DNA from: an uncultured Chloroflexia bacterium
Lineage (GTDB): Bacteria > Chloroflexota > Limnocylindria > Limnocylindrales > CSP1-4
Direction: 5' to 3'
Length of the DNA stretch: 64,000 nt
Assembly (NCBI GenBank): GCA_963711105.1
Contig: CAVQCV010000005.1
Location: 1,025,092-1,089,091 of the forward strand
In this document: one piece after another, positions 4,301-58,637 of the stretch
Numbering within the stretch: position 1 is the stretch's first letter
Layout: the number at the start of each line of letters is the position of its first letter
Notes under the pieces: generated by a model
Seen by the model: the letters and a program-made list of their open reading frames with translations, nothing else
Database searches by the model: none
What the model was told of the DNA's origin: nothing
Translations under genes and position numbers: made by a program

Positions 4301-6004
4301 CTGCCCGGAACCAAGGTCTATCCCTGGATCGCCAAGGTCCGCCACTCGACGCCCGGCGTCGGCCTCATCAGCCCGCCACCGCACCACGATATCTACTCCA
4401 TCGAGGATCTGGCCGAGCTGATCCACGACCTCAAGAACGCCAACCCCACGGCGCGCATCTCGGTCAAGCTCGTGTCCGAGGTCGGCGTCGGGACGATCGC
4501 CGCGGGCGTCGCCAAAGCCCACGCGGACGTGATCCTGATCAGCGGCTACGACGGCGGGACGGGCGCGTCGCCGCTCAGCTCGATCAAGCACGCCGGCCTG
4601 CCGTGGGAACTGGGCATCGCCGAGACGAACCAGGTCCTCCTGATCAACGACCTTCGCTCGCGCGTCGCCGTCGAAGTCGACGGCCAGATGAAGACCGGCC
4701 GCGACGTTGTCGTCGGTGCGCTGCTGGGCGCCGAGGAGTTCGGCTTCTCGACCGCCCCGCTGATCTCCCTCGGCTGCGTGATGATGAGGGTCTGCAACCT
4801 CAACACCTGCCCGGTCGGTATCGCCACCCAGGATCCGGAACTCCGACACCGGTTCGCAGGCGATCCGGAGTACGTGGTCAACTTCATGAAGTTCGTGGCC
4901 CAGGAAGTGCGGGAGCACATGGCCGTTCTCGGCTTCCGGACCTTCGAGGAGATGGTCGGCCACTCCGAGCGCCTGGAGATGCGCCGGGCCATCGACCATT
5001 GGAAGGCCCACAACCTGGACTTCAGCCGGATCCTGTACCAGCCGCAGGTGCCCAAGGGCGTCGGCCGGACGTGCCAGATAGTCCAGGAGCACAAGCTCGA
5101 GCAGTCGCTCGACGCCACGACGCTCATCCCGCTCTGTGCCCCGGCTCTGGAGCGCGGCGAAAAGGTCGAGGCCGAGCTACCGATCCACAACACCAACCGG
5201 GTCGTGGCCACGTCGCTCGGCTCCGAGGTCACCCGCCGCTACGGCGGGGAGGGCCTGCCGGAGGACACGATCAAGCTCCACTTCAGGGGCTCGGCCGGTC
5301 AGAGCTTCGGCGCGTTCGTGCCGCGGGGCGTCACCCTGACCCTCGAAGGCGACACCAACGACTACCTTGGGAAGGGCTTGTCCGGCGGCAAGATCATCCT
5401 CTTCCCGCCGCGTGAAGCGAGCTTCGTGCCCGAGGACAACGTCATCGCCGGCAACGTCGCCTTCTACGGCGCCACGTCCGGCGAGGCCTACATCCGCGGC
5501 GTCGCCGGGGAGCGCTTCTGCGTCCGCAACTCCGGGGTCAGCGCCGTGATCGAAGGCCTGGGCGACCACGGCTGCGAGTACATGACCGGTGGCCGCGTGG
5601 TAGTCATCGGCAAGACCGGGCGCAACTTCGCCGCCGGCATGTCCGGTGGCGTGGCCTACGTCCTGGACGAAAGCGGCGAGGGCGGAGCGGCCGGAGGGGG
5701 CTTCGAGCGAGTCTGCAACAAGGAGATGGTCCAGCTGTTTCCGCTCTCGAATCCGGAGGAAGTGGCCGCGGTTCGCCATCTGCTCGAAAACCACGCCGAA
5801 TACACAGGCAGCGCGAGAGCGAAGGCCCTTCTCGCCGATTGGGAGACGACGGTCAACCGGTTCATCCGGGTCGTGCCCAACGACTACCGCCGAGTTCTCG
5901 AGGCCCAGGCGCGCATGCGCGAGCGCGGCATGAGCCAGGAGGAAGCCGAGATGGCCGCCTTCGACGAGAACGTCCAGGACGCGCGACGCGTGGCGGGGAA
6001 CTAG
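1364..6004 (+). CDS. gltB: Glutamate synthase large subunit (GOGAT alpha)
   Basis: N-terminal Ntn amidotransferase Cys (ACGFGFV), plus FMN and Fe-S central and C-terminal GXGXG domains, about 1546 aa. Start taken at ATG 1364 (MELGQTG...) and the upstream in-frame extension from 1097 ignored. Confidence 0.95.
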
Positions 6005-7507: not shown

Positions 7508-8092
7508 TCAGGGCGCCGGAGCAGGACTTGGCACGTTGCCGTACGTGGCCGGGCTGACCCACGACAGCGGACCGCCCCAGTAGCGGAGCCAGGCGCGCCC
7601 GATGACCGACGATTTGGCGATGGGCCCGAAGACCCGCAAATCTTGAGACGCCTGGCGGTGGTCGCCCAGCACGAACAGGTACCCGTCCGGCACGACCCAG
7701 CTCGACTGGTCGGTTATCGGAGCGGTCTCCTGGCCGGGGTAGACGTAGGGCTCGTCGAGCTTCGCGCCGTTGACCCAAACCGCGCCGTCGTGGACGTCGA
7801 CCCGATCCCCGGCGACGGCGACGACGCGCTTGATGAACGGCACGTCCTGGCCGTCCTCGCGGTACCCGGCGGGCGGCTCGAACACGATCACGTCGCCCCT
7901 TCTGTAGTCCGTGAAGTGGGGCGAGAGCTTGTCGACCAGGACGTACTGGCCCGGCTCGAGGGTGGGCTCCATAGAGACCTGGAGTATCTGGTAGGGCTGG
8001 GCGACGAAGTTCTGGACGACGAAGAAGATGATCAGCGTCAGAACGATCGTCTCGACGATCTCGAAGAGGCAGCCTCGCCAGTTGGCCTTCAT
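7508..8092 (-). CDS. lepB: Signal peptidase I
   Basis: 195 aa from internal Met (MKANWRG...). N-terminal TM, catalytic Ser region (VSMEPTL), Lys box (KRVVAVAGD), GDHRQASQDLR box. Confidence 0.85.
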   Translation of the reverse strand: MKANWRGCLFEIVETIVLTLIIFFVVQNFVAQPYQILQVSMEPTLEPGQYVLVDKLSPHFTDYRRGDVIVFEPPAGYREDGQDVPFIKRVVAVAGDRVDVHDGAVWVNGAKLDEPYVYPGQETAPITDQSSWVVPDGYLFVLGDHRQASQDLRVFGPIAKSSVIGRAWLRYWGGPLSWVSPATYGNVPSPAPAP

Positions 8093-10011: not shown

Positions 10012-10846
10012 CTAGTCCCAGCGCATCAGCGAGCCGAACGACCAGCGCATTGCCTCCACCAGAGATGCATCGAGGGGCAAGCTGACCGTCGCCTGCTGTC
10101 CGGTAGCCCGGCCGACGACACGGACGTTCAGGTATTCGCCGGTCCAGGCCAGCGAACTCAGCCTGTCGCGCGGGACGGCCAGGACGTCCACGCCGTAGCG
10201 GGTCGTGTCGTCCAGGTACTCCGGCGGTTCCGAGGCGATGACCAGCTCCCGAGCGCCCAGCAGGGCGACGCCGCAGGCGGGGCCGCTTCTGGTCCGCGGG
10301 GCCGCCACGTTCCCGACGGCGATTCGAGCCGGTTCCGTGAGATCGGGCCGGACGCTCGCGAATTCCAGGACCACCGCCCACTTGTGCGGCAACTCGTCCG
10401 GGCCCCGGCCGGCCTTCGACCCATCCATCCAGACGAAAGCCGAATCCACGGGCAAGACGGTGCCCGCCATAGTGCGGCGCAACGCGTCCAGGCCGGGCTG
10501 CAGCGAGTCCCGGCTCGCGGTGTTGTAGCGAACGGCGATGCCCGAGTTCGCGGCCATCAGGCGCAGCTTCCCGTACAGGAGGATCTGGCGATCCTCCACG
10601 AAGAGCAACTCGTCGATGGGCACCGACGTCAGGCGGCCCTGCATACCGTCCTCGACCCAGAGGGCAACGACCGAATCGCCGAAGCCGAGGACCTCGGTTG
10701 GGGTGGCGATGGGCCGCAGACCGGCCAGATGCGTCGCCCGCGGAATCACGAACAGGCGCTCGGGGGCCAGTTCGCCACAGGCAGCCTGGATGGCAGACAC
10801 GGCCTCCGGCGGCGGTTCGAGGCGCTGCCCCCGGTCTGCGTGCATT
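10012..10846 (-). CDS. Hypothetical protein
   Basis: C-terminal roughly 277 aa of a long minus ORF. The upstream part of that ORF overlaps ada in another frame and is discounted. No recognisable motifs. Confidence 0.45.
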
Positions 10847-10957
10847 TCTTCACTGGTGCCGATGCCCTGGTCCACCCAGCGGCCTCCCTTCGCAGGCAGC
10901 TTTGCCAGAGCGATAGTACGTGACGCGGCCGCCCGGCGAGGGGCCGGCCGGAACCGG

Positions 10958-12130
10958 CTACTCGAGGCCGGAGGCCAGGACGGTGGGCCTGCGGGGATCG
11001 CGCTCGGTCGGGGAGCTGCCGGCCCGTTCGGCGGCCAGGAGCTGCTTCTTGCGCGCCAGCCCGTACGCATAGCCGTGCAGCGAGCCGTCCGAGGCGACCA
11101 CGCGATGGCACGGCACGACGATTGCGACCGGGTTCGCCGCGCAGGCGGCACCGACGGCCCGGGCCGCCCGCGGCGCCCCCACCGACGCCGCGACATCGCC
11201 GTAGGAGCGCGTCTGCCCGGCCGGGATCTGGCGCAGCGCATCCCAAACCCGCCGCCGGAACGCGGTCGCGTGAACGTCGAGCGGCAAAGTGCTCGCCTCG
11301 GGGCGCGGATTGCCCGCCGCCAGATCCGACACGAGCGCGGCCACCTCGCCCATGCCCGAGTCGTCGCGCGTAACGGCCGCGCCTGAGTACTCGCGCCGGA
11401 GATCGCCGGCCAGATCGTCCGCTTCCGTTCCCAGCCGTACCGCGCACAAGCCCCGATCCGTGGCCGCGACCAGCGCCACTCCGTCCGGGATCGGCGCGAG
11501 TGTCCAGCGGATCCGCTCCCCCGCCCCACCCGCTTTGTACCTGCCCGGGGCCATGCCGAGCTCCGTGCCGGCCGCCTCGTAGCCCGAGCTCGACGACCCG
11601 TAGCCCGCCTCGAACAGCGCGCCCAGGACGTCGCGCCCACTGGAGAGGTGGGCCCGGAGATGCTCGGCCCGGCGCGCGGCCGCCCAGGCCCTGGGCGTGA
11701 CTCCCAGCCGCTCGCGAAAGAGCTCCCGCAGCCGCCGCTCCGGCACTCCCGCGGCCGCCGCGAGCTCGCGATCGCCCGGGGCTTCCTCGCCGGAGGCCAG
11801 CGCCACGCCGAGCGTGGCCACTGTCAATTCCACGGGATCGCGGCGGGCGCTTGGATCGTCGCCCGAGGCCTCGCCGTCGAACCGGCGCTCTGGATGGCAG
11901 CGCAGGCAAGGCCTCGCCCCAGCCTCGAGCGCCTCGTCGAGGCTTTTCACGATCCGGACCCGGTCCCGCCCGGGCGTCCGGGCCGGGCACCCCGGCCGGC
12001 ACACGATGCCGGTGCTCGTGACGACCAGCAGCCACGTGCGTCCGCCGGCCGGACGCCGTTCCGCGATCGCCGCCCACTCTTCGTCCGTCGGCGCCGAACC
12101 GACCTGACTGAGTCGCTGTCGCTGATTCAT
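10958..12130 (-). CDS. ada: Bifunctional Ada regulator / O6-methylguanine-DNA methyltransferase (Ada zinc domain + AraC HTH + MGMT)
   Basis: N-terminal Ada Zn-binding motif (TGIVCRPGCPAR...RPCLRCHPE), central AraC-type HTH, C-terminal MGMT with PCHRVV active-site Cys. Confidence 0.85.
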   Translation of the reverse strand: MNQRQRLSQVGSAPTDEEWAAIAERRPAGGRTWLLVVTSTGIVCRPGCPARTPGRDRVRIVKSLDEALEAGARPCLRCHPERRFDGEASGDDPSARRDPVELTVATLGVALASGEEAPGDRELAAAAGVPERRLRELFRERLGVTPRAWAAARRAEHLRAHLSSGRDVLGALFEAGYGSSSSGYEAAGTELGMAPGRYKAGGAGERIRWTLAPIPDGVALVAATDRGLCAVRLGTEADDLAGDLRREYSGAAVTRDDSGMGEVAALVSDLAAGNPRPEASTLPLDVHATAFRRRVWDALRQIPAGQTRSYGDVAASVGAPRAARAVGAACAANPVAIVVPCHRVVASDGSLHGYAYGLARKKQLLAAERAGSSPTERDPRRPTVLASGLE

Positions 12131-12241
12131 GCGCCGATCCTAGTCGCCCCGGCGGCCGGCGACTTCCGGCCGAGTGCTTTGGCCCGGCGAACTCGACGCC
12201 CGACCCGCTACAGTCGCGCCCATGCAGGAAGTGCAAGCGTC

Positions 12242-13258
12242 ATGAAGATCGGGATCGCCGTCGGCGGCGCCATGCCGGAGGTCGCCGACCTGGCGCGTCG
12301 GGCGGAGGAAGCCGGGCTCGAATCCGTCTGGCTCGCCGAACTCGACCATTCGGCGTTCGTCCAGGCGGCCGCGGCCATTCCGGCAACGCGCGACATCGGC
12401 GTGGGCACGGGCGTGGCGCTGGCCTTCCCCCGTTCGCCGACCATCGCCGCCATGACCGCCTGGGATCTCGACGAGCTGTCCGGAGGCCGGTTCATGCTCG
12501 GCCTCGGACCCCAGGTGAAGCGAGTCCTGGAGGCGCGTTTCTCGGTCCGAGTCGACCGCCCTGCCCCGCAGATGCGCGAGTACGTTCGCGCCGTTCGAAC
12601 GGTCTGGGCGGCCAACCGGGGCGACTCGGTCGTGTATGAAGGCGAGGCCTACACGATTACACAGCCGACCTTCTACGGCCGGCCCCGGCCGGACCGTCGC
12701 GACGTGCCGATACTGCTGGCCGCCGTCGGGCCGGTCATGTCCACCGTCTGCGGCGAGGTCGCCGACGGGCTCATCGGCCATCCCCTGGCATCGCCTCGCT
12801 ACCTGCGGGAGGCGGTGCTGCCGGCTGTCGCCGCGGGCGCCGAGCGTGCGGGCCGGCCCATCGATGTCTGCCCCATCAGCGCCACGCTCATCGTCTCGGT
12901 CGGCGAGGACGAAGACGCGGCCCGTCGTGCCGCCCGGCTCCAGATCGCCTTCTACGCCACTACGCCCTCGTACAAGTCGATCCTGGCGCTCCACGACCGA
13001 GCGGCGCTGCCACGCGATCTGCGCCGGGCCTTCGTCAGCCGCGACCGGGCGCAGATGGCCGAACTGATCGACGACGAGCTGCTCGACGCCATCGCCGTGG
13101 CGGGACGGCCGGACGAGGCCCTCGACCGGCTTCGGGCCTGGGAAAGCATCGCCGACCGGGTTATCCTGGGCGTGCCCTGGTACGGCCCGGGGCCGGAGGA
13201 GCAGCGGGACGCCATCGAAGCCGCTCTCGAGATTGGGGCACGGGCGGCCGGCCGCTGA
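12242..13258 (+). CDS. Luciferase-like monooxygenase (LLM) family oxidoreductase, probably F420-dependent
   Basis: 338 aa from MKIGIAVGG. TIM-barrel LLM pattern. Divergent from ada. F420 dependence is inferred from the family and is not directly visible. Confidence 0.7.
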   Translation: MKIGIAVGGAMPEVADLARRAEEAGLESVWLAELDHSAFVQAAAAIPATRDIGVGTGVALAFPRSPTIAAMTAWDLDELSGGRFMLGLGPQVKRVLEARFSVRVDRPAPQMREYVRAVRTVWAANRGDSVVYEGEAYTITQPTFYGRPRPDRRDVPILLAAVGPVMSTVCGEVADGLIGHPLASPRYLREAVLPAVAAGAERAGRPIDVCPISATLIVSVGEDEDAARRAARLQIAFYATTPSYKSILALHDRAALPRDLRRAFVSRDRAQMAELIDDELLDAIAVAGRPDEALDRLRAWESIADRVILGVPWYGPGPEEQRDAIEAALEIGARAAGR

Positions 13259-20416: not shown

Positions 20417-21337
20417 ATGGGCGATGCGGCGGAGCGCGCCTGCTGCTACTTTTCCGAAATGCGTCAGGACCGGGCCGTCCACGTGGATCGGTCGTTCAAT
20501 CATGCAGCCGCCGAGGGCAGCCGGATCGAGCCGGCCTCTTCGGGCAGCACGCAGCTCCCAGCGGCCGATGCCGTGGCCCAGCTGTACCCGAGCCACCCCT
20601 TCGAACACGGCACGGATCAGGAGTTGATCGATCGTCGCGTCAGAACGGCCAATCCGCTGATCACGCCTTCGCCGGGACCGGGCGCATCCTCCAACCTGCG
20701 GCGCGAAGTCCTGTATGCGCTCCGAACCGGCGGCCCCGCGTCCCCGGACCAGATCGCCGATCGCGTCAACGCCAGCCGGACGGGTGTCCTGCAGCAGATG
20801 CGAACCCTGGAGACGGCCGGCCTGGTCACCCGTTCGCTCAGCCGCCACGGCGTCGGCAGGCCGCGCCACGTCTACGATCTCACTCCCTCTGCCCAGGAGC
20901 TATTCCCGGCCAACTACGGGGCGCTGACCCAGTCCGTGCTATCGGCCATTCACAAGGTTGGCGGCGACGAGCTGATCGACAGGGTTTTCGAGGCCCGCCG
21001 GGAGATGCTGCGGCATCGCATCGAACGCCGCTTCGAGCATCTTCCGCCGAACGCCAGCCTCTGGGACAGGGTCAAGGAAGTCGCGAGCTACCAGGACGAA
21101 ACGGGTTACCTGGGCCGCGCGACCATCGAGGCCGACGGCACGATCCACCTGTCCGAGCACAACTGCGCCATCTACGCGGTTTCCGGCACCTACCAGATCG
21201 CATGCGCGGCGGAACTGGAGCTGATCGCGGAGGTCCTGGGGGCGCGGGTGACGCGGGAGTGCCACATCCTGACGGGTGCCCGCAGCTGCACCTACCGCAT
21301 CGAACCGGCCGACTCGCCTCCAACCACAAGGACCTAG
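20417..21337 (+). CDS. ArsR-type winged-helix transcriptional regulator with Cys-containing C-terminal domain (COG2345/SufR-like)
   Basis: HTH segment (VLYALRTGGPASPDQIADRVNASRTGVLQQMRTLETAGLV...RPRHVYDLT) and C-terminal Cys residues. The first roughly 90 aa are low-complexity, so the true start may be internal. Confidence 0.55.
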   Translation: MGDAAERACCYFSEMRQDRAVHVDRSFNHAAAEGSRIEPASSGSTQLPAADAVAQLYPSHPFEHGTDQELIDRRVRTANPLITPSPGPGASSNLRREVLYALRTGGPASPDQIADRVNASRTGVLQQMRTLETAGLVTRSLSRHGVGRPRHVYDLTPSAQELFPANYGALTQSVLSAIHKVGGDELIDRVFEARREMLRHRIERRFEHLPPNASLWDRVKEVASYQDETGYLGRATIEADGTIHLSEHNCAIYAVSGTYQIACAAELELIAEVLGARVTRECHILTGARSCTYRIEPADSPPTTRT

Positions 21338-21356
21338 CCGCCTTCGAGGTTCGGGC

Positions 21357-22421
21357 TCAGGCTTCCTCGCGCTCGACTTCCTCCCGGCTGGCCGGCTCCG
21401 ACCCCATCGGAACAGCCCCGACCTTCGGTACGAACGAAGCCGACAGCGAGGTCTCGGCCGCGCGTACCTGCTCCTCGTAGCTCAGGATTTCGAGGCGCCC
21501 GAGCGTGGCGAGTTCGTCTCGGATGTACGTCCGGAGCATCTCGGGGCCGTCCGTGCTGATCGCGTAGCGCACGTCATTGCGGCGGAACTGCTCGAAGATC
21601 CAGCGGAATTCTTCCCAACCGGAGACGACCTCGGTCTGGAGGTTCGAAGTCGGGCAGATTTCGAGCACGGTCCCCCGCTCGCGCAGCATGCCCATCGTCC
21701 GCGGATCGTAGGCCGACTTGACTCCGTGGCCGATCCGGTCCGGCTCGAGCTGCTCGATTACCTCGGCGACCTCTTCGACCGGGCCGGATTCGCCGACGTG
21801 GACCGTGATGCCCAGGCCGAACTTGCGGGCGCGCTGGAACAAATCGCGATAGTCCGAGACGACGAATCCGGCCGACTCGGGCCCGGCGATGTCGATGCCA
21901 ACGATGCCCCGGTCGTGCCAGGCGATCGCCTTCTCGGCGATGATCTCGTTCATCTCATAAGGGAAGGCGCGGTCCAGGCAGAAGATCAGCCCCGGCCGGA
22001 TCGGGTATTCCAGCGTGGCCCGATCCATGCCTCGCAGCGCCGCGGCGATGATGTGGTCCAGATCCTGCTCGCCGCCCCGGTTGCGCTTCATCGGGTTGAA
22101 ACGCAACTCCGTGGTCGTGACGTTGTTCTTGCGGTAGGCACCGCAAACAACCTCGTAGACGCTCCGCTCCATGGCCAGTGGGGACGACTGGATCAGCTCG
22201 GTCCAGTGGAACAGCGCCAGGTACTCGTCGAACGAGTGGCCGCGCGAAGGCGAGGCGGTGATGATGTCTCGGAACTCCCAGTAATCCTTTGTCGGCAACT
22301 TGATGCCCTGGGAGTGGGCGATGCCCCACATGATCGCTGGCGTGACCGCGCCGCCGAGGTGGCAATGCAGCTCGGCCAGCGGCATTCGGGGCGGCAGATG
22401 ACGGGCCATCCGCCAGAGCAT
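21357..22421 (-). CDS. add: Adenosine/adenine deaminase family protein
   Basis: Metal-binding motifs LHCHLGG, HVGESG, ICPTSN, STDGP. The ORF-track N-terminal extension (GVGVGV...) is the antisense of the Pro/Thr linker of the next gene and is discarded. Confidence 0.8.
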   Translation of the reverse strand: MLWRMARHLPPRMPLAELHCHLGGAVTPAIMWGIAHSQGIKLPTKDYWEFRDIITASPSRGHSFDEYLALFHWTELIQSSPLAMERSVYEVVCGAYRKNNVTTTELRFNPMKRNRGGEQDLDHIIAAALRGMDRATLEYPIRPGLIFCLDRAFPYEMNEIIAEKAIAWHDRGIVGIDIAGPESAGFVVSDYRDLFQRARKFGLGITVHVGESGPVEEVAEVIEQLEPDRIGHGVKSAYDPRTMGMLRERGTVLEICPTSNLQTEVVSGWEEFRWIFEQFRRNDVRYAISTDGPEMLRTYIRDELATLGRLEILSYEEQVRAAETSLSASFVPKVGAVPMGSEPASREEVEREEA

Positions 22422-22575
22422 AGCCCCTCGGATGGAACCTGCCTTCCGAACCGCCGGCCCTACCGGGCAGCGTTCCTTGCGAACCCTCGCAAGCCCCGCT
22501 ACGCTGCGCTGACGAAAGCGCTGCGCATGCCCCGACGGAGGGCCGGCGCCGCCTCCCACAAGCCAGGGGGTATAG

Positions 22576-23529
22576 ATGAACTCGCCCAGGATCCGCGCCG
22601 CAACACTGGTCGCGGTCCTTGCTATCGTCGCCACGGCGTGCGGCGAAGCCACGCCGACGCCCGCGCCAACTCCGGTCCCCACGACCAGCCCCACGCCGTC
22701 CCCCTCACCGGCGCCGACGCCGACGCCCACACCAACGCCCACACCCACGCCCCCGCCGGTAGCCCCGGACGAGTTGTCCAGCCCGGGCCGGCTGTGGATC
22801 TGCACCGACCCGACAACTCCGCCTCAAACGTACCTCGACCCGAACGGGGAGATCATCGGATCGGACGTCGAGATCGGGTCCGAGATCGCCCGCCACCTGG
22901 GCTTGTATCCGATCATCCAGCCGACGGCCGCCAAGCTGCAGGGCACGTACCTGACCAAGGGCAACTGCGACATCATCATCTCGGCCACGACGATCTCCGC
23001 GGCGACGCTCAAGAGCTACGACATGGTGCCCTATTTCCAGTACGGCCAGGTCTTGCTCGTGCCCGCTGGCAATCCCAAGACCATCGCCGGGACCCTCGAC
23101 CTCTGCGGCAAGAAGGCAGGGGCGCGCAAGGGCAGCCTCGAGGCGGCCCACGTGTCCGGGCAATCGCCCTACAACTCGGCCCTGGGCCTGACGTCCAATT
23201 GCCAGGCATCTCATATGGGCGCCCTTACGGCCAAGACGTTCGCCAGCGACACGGCCGGGCTGGACGCCCTCAAGGCCGGTTCGATCGACGCCTACTTGAT
23301 AACCTCGACGGCGGCTGCCTACGAGATGGCGCAGCGCCCGGATACGTTCGCGACCGTGCCGGGCATCTTCCTGGACCCGACCAGGCAGGGCATCATCGTC
23401 CGCAAGTCCTCGCCCGGACTTGAGAGCGCCGTCAAGAGCGCGTTGCGGATGATGATGCTCGACGGCAGCTACCACGCCATCCTGACGAAGTACGGCATCG
23501 AGTCCGGGGCCGTCGAGGCCACCCGTTAG
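22576..23529 (+). CDS. Polar amino-acid ABC transporter substrate-binding lipoprotein (family 3 SBP), copy 1
   Basis: Lipobox LAIVATAC, PT-rich linker, PBPb fold. Confidence 0.85.
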   Translation: MNSPRIRAATLVAVLAIVATACGEATPTPAPTPVPTTSPTPSPSPAPTPTPTPTPTPTPPPVAPDELSSPGRLWICTDPTTPPQTYLDPNGEIIGSDVEIGSEIARHLGLYPIIQPTAAKLQGTYLTKGNCDIIISATTISAATLKSYDMVPYFQYGQVLLVPAGNPKTIAGTLDLCGKKAGARKGSLEAAHVSGQSPYNSALGLTSNCQASHMGALTAKTFASDTAGLDALKAGSIDAYLITSTAAAYEMAQRPDTFATVPGIFLDPTRQGIIVRKSSPGLESAVKSALRMMMLDGSYHAILTKYGIESGAVEATR

Positions 23530-23802: not shown

Positions 23803-24741
23803 ATGATTTCGCCCAAGTTCCGGCTTGCCGGCATCGTCGCGATCGCGGCGATCGTCGTCGGCGCCTGCAGCTCCGCTGCCACGCCGAGCCCTGCCCCAAC
23901 TGCCGCCCCGACGGCCATGGCGAGCGAGGGCCCCACGGCCCTCGCGGTGGCCACCGTTCCGGCCGACCAGCTGATCGCCGCCGGTACCCTGACGGTCTGC
24001 TCCGACACGAGCTATCCGCCGCAGGAGACCCTCGACTCCAGCAACGTCGCCGTCGGCTCGGACATCGATATCGCCGCTGAGATCGCCAAGCGCCTTGGCC
24101 TGAAGCTTGTGATCAAGTCCACGGTCTTCGACACCATCATTCCGGCCCTACAGGGCGGCAGCTGCGACATCATCATCTCGGCCCAGACGATCACCGACGA
24201 GCGCAAGCAGGTCGTCGACATGGTCCCCTACTTCGCTGCCGGTCAGTCGTTCGTCGTTCTCAAGGGCAATCCGGACAACATCAACGCAGTCACCGATCTC
24301 TGCGGCAAGGCCGTCGCCGCTGAGAAGGGCACCATCGAAGCCGACAACATCGCCGGCACCGGCTCAGGCTACGACGCCACGAACAGCCTCGACTCCCAGT
24401 GCAAGGCGGCCGGAAAGCCCGACATTACACTCCAGGTATTCGACGCAGACACGAATGCCCTGGCGGCGCTCCAGGCCGGAACCGTTGTGGCCCACTTCAC
24501 CGACGAACCGGTGGCGGGCTATGAAGTCGTCAACAGCAGCGGCGCTTTCGAGATGGTCCCGTCCATGACGCTCGAGCGCGGCGCCGAAGGCATCAGCGTT
24601 CTGCCGACCAAGACCGGCCTCGAGGCTTCCGTCAAGGCAGCGCTCCTGGCCATGATGGGCGACGGCACCTACATGACCATTCTCAATAAGTGGGGCGTCG
24701 AGTCCGGCGCGGTTACCGCGGCCGACGTCAACGCCGGCTAG
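23803..24741 (+). CDS. Polar amino-acid ABC transporter substrate-binding lipoprotein, copy 2 (paralog)
   Basis: Lipobox VVGAC. Colinear similarity to copy 1 (…VPYFAAGQSFVV…). Confidence 0.85.
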   Translation: MISPKFRLAGIVAIAAIVVGACSSAATPSPAPTAAPTAMASEGPTALAVATVPADQLIAAGTLTVCSDTSYPPQETLDSSNVAVGSDIDIAAEIAKRLGLKLVIKSTVFDTIIPALQGGSCDIIISAQTITDERKQVVDMVPYFAAGQSFVVLKGNPDNINAVTDLCGKAVAAEKGTIEADNIAGTGSGYDATNSLDSQCKAAGKPDITLQVFDADTNALAALQAGTVVAHFTDEPVAGYEVVNSSGAFEMVPSMTLERGAEGISVLPTKTGLEASVKAALLAMMGDGTYMTILNKWGVESGAVTAADVNAG

Positions 24742-24760
24742 CACGCTCTAGCCCGGTCCG

Positions 24761-25648
24761 ATGACCTCATCGATCGCGCATTCCGGCACCCGGCGAGCAA
24801 TGCTCGCCGGGTGCTTGGTACTCGTTGCCCTGGTCGTGTCCGGATGCTCGAGCAGCAAGGTAACGCTCAAGCCTGACCTCTTCTGGGGCATGATCTTCCA
24901 GCCCAGTCCGGCGGTGGTCAACGGGATCGGGCTGACGGTCGTCATCTCCGTCGCGGCCCAGTTCATCGGCGTGATCCTTGGCGTCTTCGCCGCGATCGGC
25001 AAGATGGCAAAGTTCTGGCCCTTCCGAACCATCGCCAACTTCTACATCTGGTTCTTCCGCGGAACACCCCTGCTCGTCCAGCTCATGTTCTTCTTCTACG
25101 GCCTCCCGGCCGCGGGTGTCTTCCAGTGGCCGATCATCTCGATCGGCCCGGTGCACATTCTGCGCGAGGTCTTCGCGGGAATCGTCATCCTCGGCATCAA
25201 CGAGGGCGCCTACATGGCGGAGATCGTTCGGGCCGGCATCCTCTCTGTCGACCCCGGCCAAACTGAAGCGGCCAAGTCGCTCGGCATGACGTATCGGCTG
25301 ACAATGTCCCGGATCGTGCTTCCGCAGGCCGCGAGGGTGATCATCCCGCCGCTCGGGAACGAGTTCAACAACATGCTCAAGACAACCTCCCTGCTCACCG
25401 TCGTCAGCGTCTACGAGCTCTACAACACGACCTCGGTCGCGGCCGGCCACAACTACCGCTACTTCGAGCTCTTCGGAGCGGCCGCGGTCTGGTATCTGCT
25501 CATGACCACCGTGTGGGGCATCATCCAGAGCCGGATCGAGCGCAGGCTTGGCCGGGGCTCCGCCAGCCAGGGCACCGGCCCCGTCGGGCCACGTAGTGAA
25601 GGCCTCGCCTCTCGACTCATGGCGTTACGGGCGCCGATAGAACAATGA
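24761..25648 (+). CDS. Amino-acid ABC transporter permease
   Basis: EAA loop ([22 protein letters not shown]), multiple TM helices. Confidence 0.85.
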
Positions 25649-26472
25649 CAGTCCAGATCTCCGGAGACCTTCTCGGCGCCATCGGCGGCGTCCCTCGTCC
25701 CGAAGCCGACGTCGTCGTCGACGCTCGCGGCGTCAACAAGTGGTTCGGCCGGCTGCACGTCCTCAAGGACGTTTCGCTCGAGGTCAAGCGCCAGGAGACG
25801 GTCGTAATCATCGGGCCGTCGGGCTCGGGCAAGACCACTTTCATCCGCTGCATGAACCACCTCGAGAAGATTCAGAGCGGCCGAATCTTCGTCAACGGCC
25901 ACCTGATCGGTTATCGCGAGGCGGCCGGCGGCACGAAGCTGGTCGAAGACAGGGAGAGGAACATCGCCCACCAGCGCCAGGAGATCGGGATGGTCTTCCA
26001 GCGCTTCAATCTCTTCCCCCACATGACCGCGCTGGAGAACATCGTCGAGGCGCCGATCCACGTGCGCGGTACCTCCCGCGACGAGGCTGAGGCAATGGGA
26101 CGCGCTCTGCTCGAGCGAGTGGGGCTCGTGGCGAAAGCCAACTCCTACCCCGCGCAGCTCTCCGGTGGCCAGCAGCAGCGCATCGCGATCGCCCGGGCGC
26201 TGGCCATGAAGCCGGCCCTGATGCTGTTCGACGAACCGACGTCCGCGCTGGATCCCGAGATGATCGGCGAGGTGCTGGAGGTCATGAAGGAGCTGGCCCG
26301 CGAAGGCATGACCATGATCGTGGTCAGCCACGAGATGGGCTTCGCCCGCGAAGTGGCCAACCGCGTCGTGATGATGGACGAGGGCGTCGTCGTCGAAGAA
26401 GGCACTCCGGATCAGGTGTTCTCCCACCCCGCGCAGGAGCGCACGAAGGCGTTCCTCTCGAAGATCCTGTAG
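25645..26472 (+). CDS. Amino-acid ABC transporter ATP-binding protein
   Basis: Walker [10 protein letters not shown], signature LSGGQQQR, Walker [12 protein letters not shown]. 4-bp overlap with the permease. Confidence 0.9.
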
Positions 26473-26477
26473 CCGCC

Positions 26478-27047
26478 CCGGGGCCGGCGGCGCCACGCTT
26501 TGGCGAGGGGCGGCGGCCACGCTTTGGCGAGGGGCGGCGGCCACGCTTTGGCGAGGGGCGGCGCCACGCTTTGGCGAGGGGCGGCGCCACGCTTTGGCGA
26601 GGGGCGGCGCCACGCTTTGGCGAGGGGCGGCGCCACGCTTTGGCGAGGGGCGGCGCCACGCTTTGGCGAGGGGCGGCGCCACGCTTTGGCGAGGGGCGGC
26701 GCCACGCTTTGGCGAGGGGCGGCGCCACGCTTTGGCGAGGGGCGGCGCCACGCTTTGGCGAGGGGCGGCGCCACGCTTTGGCGAGGGGCGGCGCCACGCT
26801 TTGGCGAGGGGCGGCGGCCACGCTTTGGCGAGGGGCGGCGCCACGCTTTGGCGAGGGGCGGCGCCACGCTTTGGCGAGGGGCGGCGCCACGCTTTGGCGA
26901 GGGGCGGCGCCACGCTTTGGCGAGGGGCGGCGGCCACGCTTTGGCGAGGGGCGGCGCCACGCTTTGGCGAGGGGCGGCGCCACGCTTTGGCGAGGGGCGG
27001 CGGCCACGCTTTGGCGAGGGGCGGCGGCCACGCTTTGGCGAGGGGCG
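26478..27047. repeat. Tandem repeat array, about 24 copies of a 23/24-bp unit (CACGCTTTGGCGAGGGGCGGCG[G]C)
   Basis: Counted directly from sequence. Head-to-tail copies with only one variable position (one or two G). No unique spacers. Open in several frames only because the unit lacks stop codons. Confidence 0.9.
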
Positions 27048-27112
27048 GCCCGCCCACTCGAAACCAACTCTCGGCGTCCGAGCTGACTTGCTCAACGTCA
27101 ACCGTGGCGACC

Positions 27113-27925
27113 CTAACCAGGCCCCGGGAGATCGGTGGCACCCCCATCCCGGCGAGATGGGCTTCCTGAGGCGTCGCCTGAGCGTGAGCTGGGCCGATCC
27201 AGGTCATGTCGGGTGGCTCTGACTCTCAATGCGCCCCCTGAACGTTGCCCAGCGTTACCGGGGTTGACATCGGACAGGAACCACAGTCCCCGGATGTCGC
27301 CCCGAGGAGCGCGGATCCATTTGCGCACCTCCAGCGATCCGGCTGGGTACGCGGCACGTACGACGGGACCGAATTCCTCGACGGTGTGTCTCGCCTGGCT
27401 CTCTCCGGGCATCGCCAGCACGGTCCCGACCAGAAGCGGCTGCCATCCAAGCTCACGAGCCAGCCGGGGCGCCAGCCTGCGCTTTCGATCGAGTGTCGAC
27501 AGCGTGTCCTGCAGATCTAAGATGACCGGCTTGGCCTCCACCACCAGCAGAGCGCGAGTTGCGGCGTGCCAGCCCATCGCGTCGAGCGCGCCGTTCTCGC
27601 CGAAGATCGCAAATGTCAGTTCAGGGCGTACTTCCCAGCTCGCGGCCGTGAGCCTCTGAACAATCGCCCTGACGAGGGCCGCGTGCCTGGCGTCGAGCAG
27701 CCTCGCAATCTCCCCGCCGCGCCATCGCGGGCTGAACGGAACAGAAACCCCGAGAGCCGCGCCGACGTGCCTGATCGAACGCAGCGACATCTGTTCCAGG
27801 TGGCCGCTCTCGATCATCGAGACCATCGCCCGGCTGACTCCCGCCGCAGCCGCCACATCGGCCTGACGCAAGCGGCGCCGAAGGCGCACGGCGCGCATGA
27901 CGGCACCGACCCGGACATCGTCCAT
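27113..27925 (-). CDS. XRE-family HTH transcriptional regulator
   Basis: N-terminal HTH (LRQADVAAAAGVSRAMVSMIESG). Stop lies just downstream of the tandem-repeat array. Confidence 0.65.
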   Translation of the reverse strand: MDDVRVGAVMRAVRLRRRLRQADVAAAAGVSRAMVSMIESGHLEQMSLRSIRHVGAALGVSVPFSPRWRGGEIARLLDARHAALVRAIVQRLTAASWEVRPELTFAIFGENGALDAMGWHAATRALLVVEAKPVILDLQDTLSTLDRKRRLAPRLARELGWQPLLVGTVLAMPGESQARHTVEEFGPVVRAAYPAGSLEVRKWIRAPRGDIRGLWFLSDVNPGNAGQRSGGALRVRATRHDLDRPSSRSGDASGSPSRRDGGATDLPGPG

Positions 27926-27990
27926 GGCCCGAGCATAGGCCGCCAGGATCTACGCAGGCTTATCGGACTCCGAGCGGCATGGGCCGGACG

Positions 27991-30552: not shown

Positions 30553-30940
30553 CACGTCGATAGATCCTCCGGGAGCTGCGCGCCCGATCCTTCTGGGGCG
30601 TGGCGTTAGTGTGGCGCATCCGGCGCCCTTTGGTCCTCGTGGATCGCGGCCCGGTTCTGCAGAGCGCTCCGCCGTACCTCGACACTCCGCCGCCGGGGGC
30701 GGCCTGCCACTTGCGCTCGCCACGCGGACCGGACAAGGTCCCGCGCGCCGGTTTCGAGGCTGGAGAGCCATTATTGGAGACAAAGATGCGGCCACCGCGC
30801 CTCGGGCGCCCCACCATTGCCGGCCGCACGGGGCGCCGGGACGAAGGCGGATCGAACTCGCCGGCCCGGCAGCCCCGCCGATCGTGTGTCGCCAGCCAGG
30901 TGCTGCGGCTGGAGACCACGGATGAAAGGAAGTAATCGCT

Positions 30941-55849: not shown

Positions 55850-56685
55850 GACGTGGCAGCCTTTCGCCCGGCGATCTTCGCGGCGCAGCGAAGGCAGTAC
55901 TTGGATCCGTCGCCGGGGTGGTCGGCCGCGTGTCCCACCATGTCGTAGCACCACGGACTCGACCAGGTTGCGGCGCGATCGACTCCGATTCGCGTCGCTG
56001 GGTCCGATCCGGTTGTGCCGTTCTGTTGCGGAAGAATCGGCGCTATCTCCGCTCGATCAACCGGCTCCGACCCTTCCGTCGAAGAAAGCTCGGCTGCGGC
56101 TTGAGAAGAACGGTTGAGTTCTGGATTCTGTCCTACTCGGACGGAGGTACCAACCGGAATCTCAGTCTCAGTAGGAATCTCAGTCTCAGTAGTTGGATCG
56201 ACCGTTGGCTGATTGCCCAACGGTTCGTTGGCTGATTGCCCAACGGTTCGTTGGCTGGTTCGTTGGGATCGCGGCAGGAAATGCCCGGCATCGTCTCGAC
56301 GGGCCGCCCGAGCGGAGGCCTGACCGGCGACCTTCGCGGCCTCGATCCGCTTCGCCCTGGCCTCTTCTTGGGTTGGGATGCGATAGCGGTAGTCCGGCAG
56401 CCGCTCGATTAGGCCGAGCCGGGCCAGCTCATCCGCCAGTTCGTCCGATACCGAGCGGTTGAGATCTGCCGGACTCGGCCAGGCGCGATCCGCAGCCAGC
56501 GTGAGCCGAACCAAGACGGCGAGCTTGCGATCATCCGAGTAGACGCCAGCGAGGGCCGGATCGTCCGCGAGGGCATGGGGCAGTCGGACCCAGGCCTCGC
56601 GGCGCAGGTCAACCGCGCGGCTGCTCATCGTACGGGCCCTGGAGTGGAGGCGGGACCGCCCAGGCCGACGATCCCGCCCGCACAC
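55846..56685 (-). CDS. Putative DNA-binding/replication protein of the element
   Basis: N-terminal winged-helix-like segment, central low-complexity region encoded by DNA-level repeats, C-terminal Cys/His cluster (HPGDGSKYCLRCAAK). The function is a guess. Confidence 0.4.
   Translation of the reverse strand: MCGRDRRPGRSRLHSRARTMSSRAVDLRREAWVRLPHALADDPALAGVYSDDRKLAVLVRLTLAADRAWPSPADLNRSVSDELADELARLGLIERLPDYRYRIPTQEEARAKRIEAAKVAGQASARAARRDDAGHFLPRSQRTSQRTVGQSANEPLGNQPTVDPTTETEIPTETEIPVGTSVRVGQNPELNRSSQAAAELSSTEGSEPVDRAEIAPILPQQNGTTGSDPATRIGVDRAATWSSPWCYDMVGHAADHPGDGSKYCLRCAAKIAGRKAATS
56157..56260. repeat. Direct and inverted repeats (18-bp x2, then 23-bp x2 plus a partial copy containing ccgttgg-N8-ccaacgg)
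   Basis: gaatctcagtctcagtag x2 (56157-56192). cgttggctgattgcccaacggtt x2 plus a partial copy (56204-56260). The 23-bp unit is out of frame between copies, so these repeats are DNA-level. Confidence 0.75.
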
Positions 56686-58562: not shown

Positions 58563-58637
58563 TGGCTGGCGCGCTAGGATTCGAACCTAGAATCCCCTGA
58601 TCCAGAGTCAGGTGCCTTACCGTTAGGCCACGCGCCA
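58563..58637 (-). tRNA. tRNA-Gln (anticodon CTG)
   Basis: Hand-folded 75-nt cloverleaf. U1-A72 acceptor (TGGCGCG/CGCGCCA), anticodon stem CCTGA/TCAGG, loop CTCTGGA, T-arm CTAGG-TTCGAAT-CCTAG, encoded CCA. Confidence 0.85.

Follow-up and report, generated by a model that had tools for sequence, protein, structure and literature searches.

The locus examined here raises the question of why some 24 copies of a 23- or 24-bp unit should lie head to tail between two convergent genes of an uncultured Chloroflexia bacterium, in a 64,000-nucleotide stretch of contig CAVQCV010000005.1 (hereafter the window). A first-pass annotation, made from the letters of the window, had described this array and proposed it as a non-coding candidate variable-number tandem repeat (VNTR). 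The array is a genuine non-coding minisatellite (VNTR), and we hold it somewhat more probable than not that it is driven by slippage in a repeat-prone zone tied to the adjacent gene, which encodes a helix-turn-helix (HTH) protein of XRE type fused to a nuclease-like domain, and to a DNA motif element at the end of that gene. Taken by itself, the array is an ordinary minisatellite. The unusual part is the class-wide association of arrays, a cluster of 28-nt motifs and an uncharacterised HTH-nuclease family, which we regard as a lead worth testing rather than as an established system.

Tandem Repeats Finder (TRF), run on the window, returned a single dominant array at 26486-27049, with a period of 23, 24.3 copies, 98% matches and a score of 1074. 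An invariant 21-mer core, CACGCTTTGGCGAGGGGCGGC, was found exactly 24 times at 26494-27049, on the + strand only, with spacings between successive copies of 23 bp (17 times) or 24 bp (6 times). The choice of GC or GGC at the unit junction, which separates 23-bp from 24-bp units, is the sole variable position, as the annotation had read it. A unit-like partial copy, GGGGCCGGCGGCGC, pushes the start of the array back to about 26478, that is, 6 bp past the stop codon of the ATP-binding cassette (ABC) transporter ATPase gene. The array and one example of the dyad that its units form are as follows.

26478-27049, unstranded: tandem array of one partial unit-like stretch and 24 head-to-tail units, the + strand unit being CACGCTTTGGCGAGGGGCGGCG(G)C

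26486-26500, unstranded: one example of the 15-bp dyad CGCCA-N5-TGGCG, read from the sequence and from dissection of the related units described below

The coordinates first proposed (26478-27047) were therefore correct to within 2 bp, and the count of about 24 head-to-tail copies is upheld both by TRF and by the 24 exact matches of the 21-mer. From the stop codon of the ABC ATPase gene (26472, + strand) to that of the XRE gene (27113, - strand) the gap measures 640 bp, and the array takes up most of it. Its + (ABC-sense) strand is G-rich and its XRE-sense strand C-rich, in a window of 68.7% G+C. The dyad CGCCA-N5-TGGCG is present at every junction with a 23-bp unit and is shortened to GCCA-N5-TGGC in 24-bp units. 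Head-to-tail units within the 10-100 bp range of minisatellites, without spacers, are thus present in 24 copies with a 23/24-bp period. The annotation had proposed looking for other loci with this unit, and we found no further copy of CACGCTTTGGCGAGGGGCGGC in the 64-kb window with up to 3 mismatches (chance expectation 0.01 matches).

The XRE protein matched a 1.35-Mb contig at 100%, and a relative at 87%, P0002, is encoded on ENA ERZ25039495 contig_59910 (L001). The L001 contig is fully syntenic with the window, in that genes for a 2-oxoacid dehydrogenase E2 component, lipoyl synthase and the XRE protein are followed by convergent genes for the ABC ATPase, permease and binding protein. Its XRE-ABC gap, 315 bp long, holds about 10 copies of the window's unit, again mixed 23 and 24 bp, in three variants (CCACGCTTTGG, CCACGCGTTGG and CCACTCGTTGG). 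The copy number at the orthologous site is therefore 24 in one genome and about 10 in the other, the two being probably different species, and the presence of the unit at a syntenic site in such different numbers indicates that the array is real, is inherited, and gains or loses whole units. A difference in copy number between related genomes at one locus is the property that defines a VNTR, and the proposal of a VNTR is thus borne out in the gap of this sister metagenome-assembled genome (MAG).

The accessions of the ERZ250394xx series are Microflora Danica MAGs, which derive from deep Nanopore sequencing (PMC12313526). The window's source contig probably comes from the same Nanopore long-read set; as long reads span 560 bp, the copy number of the array is credible. 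Single-base G/GG calls demand caution with Nanopore data, since such indels can be consensus errors, yet the same polymorphism was seen in both assemblies. An assembly artefact is essentially ruled out by the recurrence of the unit, the G/GG polymorphism and the location in an independent assembly, probably of a different species. The annotation had named collapse of the array on re-assembly as evidence that would overturn it; the second assembly holds the array. Comparable arrays were also found in short-read MAGs, such as one of 20 bp x 10.9 in L040.

Two perfect arrays are found elsewhere on the sister contig, one of 37 bp x 5.9 at 7733-7951, between the lipoyl synthase gene and the start of the HTH-nuclease gene, and one of 92 bp x 2 at 4639-4821, upstream of the E2 gene. 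The matching gaps of the window (27926-27990 and 30556-30940) contain no array.

The same pair of genomes allowed the conservation of the unit to be assessed. The flanking genes share 85-93% nucleotide identity, and the ABC ATPase genes agree at 75.4% of third codon positions. Outside the repeats, the two gaps are set apart by numerous indels, yet the major unit variant has exactly the same sequence in the two genomes. For a 23-mer drifting at the rate of third positions, the probability of remaining unchanged is about 0.75^23 = 0.001, a value that applies to the major variant only and to two genomes. Unit-to-unit substitutions in L001 all fall in the N5 centre of the dyad, the arms being invariant. 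In this single comparison, the unit appears to have changed less than neutral sites, which hints at constraint.

The array does not behave as a coding sequence. All six reading frames are open across it (the annotation had noted several), and the codon-usage log-odds are negative in 6/6 frames (-0.12 to -0.26 per codon), compared with +0.48 for the ABC ATPase and +0.29 for the lipoyl synthase. These negative scores, together with the scrambling of frame by the mixture of 23- and 24-bp units, rule out a coding repeat and sustain the earlier claim that the array is non-coding. Any open reading frame (ORF) that crossed it would continue on the antisense strand of a conserved neighbour, the ABC or the XRE gene. 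An antisense overlap with a real gene had also been put forward; this stands for the spurious long ORFs across the array, which run antisense into the ABC gene, and falls for the array itself, which overlaps no real gene.

Other identities could be set aside in the same manner. Rfam gave no match to the array at the gathering threshold, nor at E<=1, and folding was no better than that of shuffled sequence on both strands (z-scores -1.72 and -0.65), ruling out a known or structured RNA. The units abut at a spacing of 23 or 24 bp, equal to the unit size, and leave no spacers, so that the annotation was right to exclude CRISPR. A hand score of the unit on the G4Hunter scale came to ~0.9, under the usual threshold for a G-quadruplex. 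Neither the 185,579 species-representative genomes searched nor the viral contigs contained an exact match to the unit core (0 hits in each). A degenerate form of the unit gave 4 isolated single matches and no array in the Joint Genome Institute (JGI) metagenomes, one of these matches having been inspected by eye and found not to be an array. Together with the 64-kb window, these searches rule out a dispersed intergenic repeat family, whether repetitive extragenic palindromes or bacterial interspersed mosaic elements (REP/BIME), mycobacterial interspersed repetitive units (MIRUs) or miniature inverted-repeat transposable elements (MITEs); membership of a known repeat family, which the annotation had listed as a possible refutation, finds no support in the representative genomes, viral contigs or JGI metagenomes. 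Literature searches on tandem repeats in Limnocylindria or in convergent gaps returned nothing relevant, and nothing on the association of arrays, motif cluster and HTH-nuclease family described below.

The above findings establish what the array is, and the wider context suggests why it may be where it is. A homolog-alignment scan of representative genomes gave 71 loci, essentially all in Chloroflexota or Candidatus Limnocylindria MAGs. TRF was run on every locus, and gaps were delimited with a simple codon-model gene caller that reproduced the database gene calls of L001 and L003. Gap statistics were drawn from 69 loci, which are partly orthologous.

Gaps downstream of the HTH-nuclease gene (n=57): 53% with an array (30/57), 24% of bases in arrays

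Gaps upstream of the HTH-nuclease gene (n=67): 39% with an array (26/67), 14% of bases in arrays

All other gaps of the same loci (n=452): 16% with an array (71/452), 4.6% of bases in arrays

Compared with the other gaps, arrays were more frequent downstream of the gene (odds ratio 6.0, p = 3e-9, Fisher) and upstream of it (odds ratio 3.4, p = 3e-5, Fisher). When convergent gaps only were considered, 50% of the 38 beside the HTH-nuclease gene carried an array, versus 23% of the 75 others. The 38 downstream arrays belong to 36 unrelated unit families with periods of 7-80 bp, showing that they arose independently. Arrays in convergent gaps were C-rich on the XRE-sense strand in 15 cases and G-rich in 3, a bias with which the window's array agrees. 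In L003, a syntenic locus whose protein is 57% identical, the same gap holds a different repeat (53 bp x 3), and in L081, where the HTH-nuclease gene is present, a 238-bp gap contains two 15-bp arrays. L079 and L080 are without the HTH-nuclease gene; there, 56 bp separate the ABC ATPase gene from its convergent neighbour, with no array.

An GCCACGCG core recurs in tandem in the gap arrays of three lineages (L001 and the window, L004 and L005, and L018) and ranked top in an unbiased 8-mer screen, with few lineages behind it. L004 (10829-10940) and L005 (3220-3377) have identical 70-bp flanks past the stop of the gene, followed by 13-bp arrays of GCCACGCGACCCC x 3.2 and GCCACGCGGTCAC x 6.8, respectively. 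As the flanks are identical but the arrays differ, the unit outside the GCCACGCG core and the copy number can change faster than the flanks.

A second feature of these loci is a 28-nt motif, with consensus TAGCATCGCCCCGGGTGAAG[A/T]TGAGCA, which overlaps the stop codon of the HTH-nuclease gene in the closer homologs. The stop is either the TAG that starts the motif or the TGA within it, and this alternation points to conservation at the nucleotide level. A profile search placed a further copy, inverted, within the ORF at the end of the folded domain, 163-176 nt ahead of the stop. The corresponding features of the window are the following.

27089-27116, - strand: copy of the 28-nt motif, TAGGGTCGCCACGGTTGACGTTGAGCA (nhmmer E 6.4e-4), overlapping the stop codon of the XRE-nuclease gene

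27251-27268, unstranded: inverted-repeat partner of the stop-proximal motif, whose other arm is 27097-27114, 136 nt apart, in a layout shared with other loci

The partner arm is within the ORF, at the junction of the folded domain and a disordered tail. In L004-L020 the copies form a composite element of ~230 bp at the XRE-nuclease stop, consisting of the inverted motif copy, a central GATTCCACGCTC, the motif at the stop and a further copy exactly 50 bp downstream of it, the latter two at constant distances from the stop. This element overlaps the last ~55 codons of the HTH-nuclease gene. Codon usage of the gene is unusually low-scoring, with +0.12 per codon for the folded part and a non-coding-like -0.44 for the last 51 codons, which fits a tail produced by reading into the composite element.

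A second copy of the element was found upstream of the E2 gene in L010 (375-580), L015 (6898-7064), L017 (24-234), L018 (6075-6280) and L070 (6883-7093), in the same orientation, with no adjoining paralog and also flanked by arrays, so that the block of E2, lipoyl synthase and nuclease genes is bracketed by the element in several genomes. In L004, L005, L012, L013, L016 and L018, arrays of short units come after the motif cluster. RNAalifold predicted no consensus pairs in the composite element and none between the inverted motif copies, which rules out an RNA stem between them and indicates that the copies behave as DNA-level sites. An inversion polymorphism between the inverted motifs was considered and dropped, as 12/12 aligned copies have the same orientation and the sole contrary hint is a 9-mer in L081. 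An origin of the array unit in the 28-nt motif was considered on account of a resemblance by eye (TCGCCA...) and is not claimed, as the motif profile did not detect the array units at E<=10.

The L018 locus shows a further arrangement. A module made up of two motif copies and a 13-bp CCCCGCCACGCGG array occurs there in threefold repetition within 10805-11202 and 12547-12890, flanking a 1.2-kb gene (11203-12432) on either side. This suggests a larger-scale duplication of the whole motif-plus-array unit.

The genes that border the window's array, and a hairpin between the array and one of them, are listed below.

25645-26472, + strand: gene for the ATPase of a polar amino-acid ABC transporter (Pfam ABC_tran, E 3.9e-35; NCBIfam GlnQ/EhuA-like), the protein ending ...FLSKIL

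27070-27082, - strand: terminator-like hairpin CTCGG-ACG-CCGAG with a T-rich tail, from a consensus scan only, in which the number of sites was not above that of shuffles

27113-27925, - strand: gene for a 270-residue protein with an XRE-type HTH and a PD-(D/E)XK nuclease-like domain, defined by domain searches, homolog alignment, AlphaFold2 and Foldseek

The ATPase gene is the last of an operon for solute-binding protein, permease and ATPase (23803-26472; Pfam SBP_bac_3 and BPD_transp_1), whose binding-protein gene is at 23803-24741 on the + strand. The XRE gene is convergent to this operon and is followed by the genes for lipoyl synthase and the 2-oxoacid dehydrogenase E2. Lying between the XRE stop and the array, the terminator-like hairpin suggests, as far as a consensus match can, that the array is beyond the end of the XRE transcript.

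The annotation had called this neighbour an XRE regulator. A convergent gene with an XRE-type HTH is indeed present; its product is not a plain regulator but, by its predicted fold and signature, an HTH fused to a nuclease-like domain of the PD-(D/E)XK superfamily. The HTH spans residues 1-60 and the nuclease-like domain residues 79-217, and a disordered, hypervariable tail runs from about residue 223-235 to 270. In an alignment of 26 homologs, E102, D115, E130 and K132 are invariant, forming the PD-(D/E)XK signature (E...D...ExK). The AlphaFold2 model has a predicted local distance difference test (pLDDT) score mostly >90 over residues 1-60 and 79-217, the latter with an alpha-beta-beta-beta-alpha-beta core, and <50 over residues 223-268. 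Foldseek matched the C-terminal domain to the R2 retrotransposon RLE domain, AF1548, VC1899 and the Can2 nuclease domain (E 2e-4 to 2e-2, with low TM scores) and the N-terminus to Cro/C1-type regulators. Searches of Pfam, NCBIfam, PADLOC and PHROGs returned the HTH only, the nuclease part falling in no family of theirs. TAL-effector matches of the XRE protein in a PDB sequence search had no significant stretch and were discarded as noise. More than 300 homologs make up the family; essentially all come from Chloroflexota/Limnocylindria MAGs, and a genome often has two copies.

Two smaller repeats elsewhere in the window deserve mention. Two perfect small tandem duplications, GGAATCTCAGTCTCAGTA x 2.1 and CGTTGGCTGATTGCCCAACGGTT x 2.4, adjoin each other at 56156-56257, where the sequence is locally richer in AT and a tRNA-Gln gene (58563-58637) is ~2.3 kb away; the CGTTGGCTGATTGCCCAACGGTT unit holds an inverted repeat, TTGG-N-CCAA. 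At 22678-22757, within overlapping long ORFs (21276-23423 and 22576-23529, both + strand), a degenerate CGCCCA-type repeat shows periods of 24 and 6 bp and is possibly a low-complexity coding linker.

Taken together, these observations are consistent with a model in which the array, perhaps seeded from the G-rich descending arm and T-tract past the stop codon of the ABC operon, changes in length through slipped-strand mispairing or unequal recombination. The surrounding zone would be repeat-prone if some protein bound or cut the motif cluster, the neighbouring HTH-nuclease being the most plausible candidate; binding or cutting could stall replication forks or produce breaks, and their repair could generate tandem duplications. 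Once formed, the array might chiefly keep two converging transcription units apart, as a spacer or insulator of variable length. The units might in addition be protein-bound, to which we would give about one chance in three in view of their conservation and of a dyad that resembles an operator. A bolder version, which we consider rather unlikely, is that an undescribed cis/trans module exists across Candidatus Limnocylindria, made up of the HTH-nuclease, the ~230-bp composite element (with its three 28-nt motif copies, encoding the disordered tail) and fast-evolving abutting arrays. Its protein would bind or nick the motif; in doing so it would either give rise to the arrays, making the locus hypervariable in a programmed or semi-programmed way, or employ them as a platform for binding.

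Several points weigh against this model. The test of unit conservation draws on two genomes only, and when the two variable positions of L001 are counted as divergence, the probability of <=2 changes rises to about 0.05. The window's own copy of the 28-nt motif is a weak match (E 6e-4). As the loci are partly orthologous, the Fisher p-values overstate their independence; about half of the gaps downstream of the HTH-nuclease gene have no array, and convergent gaps elsewhere already carry one at the 23% rate given above. The step through fork stalling and break repair is pure conjecture, and both the nuclease activity and the binding to motif or units are predictions. Finally, the HTH is well conserved across the family and the array units are not, which argues against the units in general being its recognition sites.

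This last point bears on the possibility that the array consists of ~24 functional protein-binding sites, operator- or iteron-like, in which each unit offers its CGCCA-N5-TGGCG dyad to a dimeric protein, possibly the adjacent HTH-nuclease, and the bound array, as a nucleoprotein block, either serves as roadblock or insulator where the convergent transcription units meet or titrates the protein. Its half-sites are 10 bp apart centre to centre, the typical geometry of Cro/XRE-type dimers. The confinement of substitutions to N5, the identity of the major unit across 25% divergence at synonymous-type sites, the tandem recurrence of the GCCACGCG core in three lineages and the enrichment of arrays beside the gene of a DNA-binding protein all agree with it. 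We nevertheless regard it as unlikely, if the most attractive departure from our model: 36 unrelated unit families are hard to reconcile with a conserved HTH, L004 and L005 differ in their units outside the core despite identical flanks, half of the orthologous gaps do without an array, the position at the 3' end of both genes offers no promoter, and the motif profile leaves the units undetected. Conversely, the array could be a neutral minisatellite in a permissive, untranscribed convergent gap, with no tie to the HTH-nuclease or the motif, the enrichment reflecting shared ancestry and long, tolerant gaps. Convergent gaps are in general richer in arrays than others, these genomes are repeat-rich overall (0.36 arrays per kb), unit sequences turn over fast, and neither a structural nor a coding signal was found. 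This we consider improbable, because the enrichment persists against other convergent gaps, the arrays originated independently, and the second copy of the motif element, ahead of the E2 gene, has arrays at its sides as well. The 56-bp gap of genomes lacking the HTH-nuclease gene, the conservation of the unit beyond neutral expectation and the strand bias of 15 to 3 speak in the same direction.

A role at the RNA level would take one of two forms, a 3'-untranslated string of hairpins (CGCCA-loop-UGGCG) stabilising the mRNA of the ABC operon in the manner of REP elements, or a C-rich, rut-like Rho-loading tract with periodic spacing on the XRE-sense transcript. Each unit could form a 5-bp hairpin, with the variable positions of L001 in its loop; the array begins just past the ABC stop codon, and convergent-gap arrays tend to be C-rich on the XRE-sense strand. 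The shuffle-like folding of both strands and the empty Rfam search tell against such a role; an XRE-sense unit of ~30% G would make a poor rut site, and the XRE transcript may end at the terminator-like hairpin, short of the array. A function of this kind therefore seems very improbable. The evidence given earlier leaves almost no room for an assembly or consensus artefact, which the probable Nanopore origin of the source and its G/GG indels might have suggested, or for a protein-coding repeat, for which the six open frames might have spoken. We thus retain the model of a slippage-driven minisatellite in a repeat-prone zone.

The array alone provides a usable VNTR marker for an uncultured lineage of soil Chloroflexota, and shows that long-read MAGs now resolve such loci. 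If the link to the HTH-nuclease and its motif were causal, the locus would offer a natural example of tandem-repeat formation in bacteria being driven, or exploited, locally by a protein or site, and would point to a function for a widespread, unannotated HTH-PD-(D/E)XK family.

Among known systems, type III toxin-antitoxin loci also place a tandem array of short repeats beside a nuclease gene. In those loci the ToxI repeats precede the toxin gene, share its strand and are transcribed together with it, and ToxN, of the ToxN/CptN/TenpN endoribonucleases, differs in fold from PD-(D/E)XK. Here, the array is downstream of the gene, past a terminator-like hairpin, the protein combines an HTH with a predicted PD-(D/E)XK fold, and PADLOC matched its HTH only. 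REP/BIME elements of enterobacteria are short, GC-rich, imperfect palindromes in hundreds of dispersed copies of alternating orientation, which can stabilise mRNA or bind proteins. The window's unit resembles these elements, which often lie between convergent genes, in being a short, GC-rich, imperfect palindrome in a 3' intergenic region. In contrast to REP/BIME, its copies all run head to tail at a single locus; the window has none elsewhere, and the collections searched gave no array.

Closer in layout are tandem protein-binding arrays such as plasmid iterons, sopC of F (12 x 43 bp) and the parC centromere of R1. These share with the array direct repeats of ~20-40 bp with a short dyad, a conserved unit, a variable copy number and an adjoining gene for a DNA-binding protein. 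The present array differs in being chromosomal, on a 1.35-Mb contig, at the 3' ends of both its neighbours, and in having unrelated units in related genomes; in place of rep or par genes, or of a plasmid or origin, its surroundings are the ABC operon and the HTH-nuclease, lipoyl synthase and E2 genes.

The nearest parallel is offered by bacterial VNTR loci, of which the MIRU-VNTR and exact tandem repeat (ETR) loci of Mycobacterium tuberculosis are examples. As in these, the units are tens of base pairs long, head to tail, without spacers, intergenic and homogeneous, and their copy number varies (here 24 versus 10), presumably by slippage or unequal recombination. MIRUs have units of 40-100 bp and are scattered over dozens of loci, typically within operons; their small ORFs are coupled to the genes on either side. 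The unit described here differs from them in occupying one locus, between convergent genes, where arrays are tied class-wide to one neighbouring gene family.

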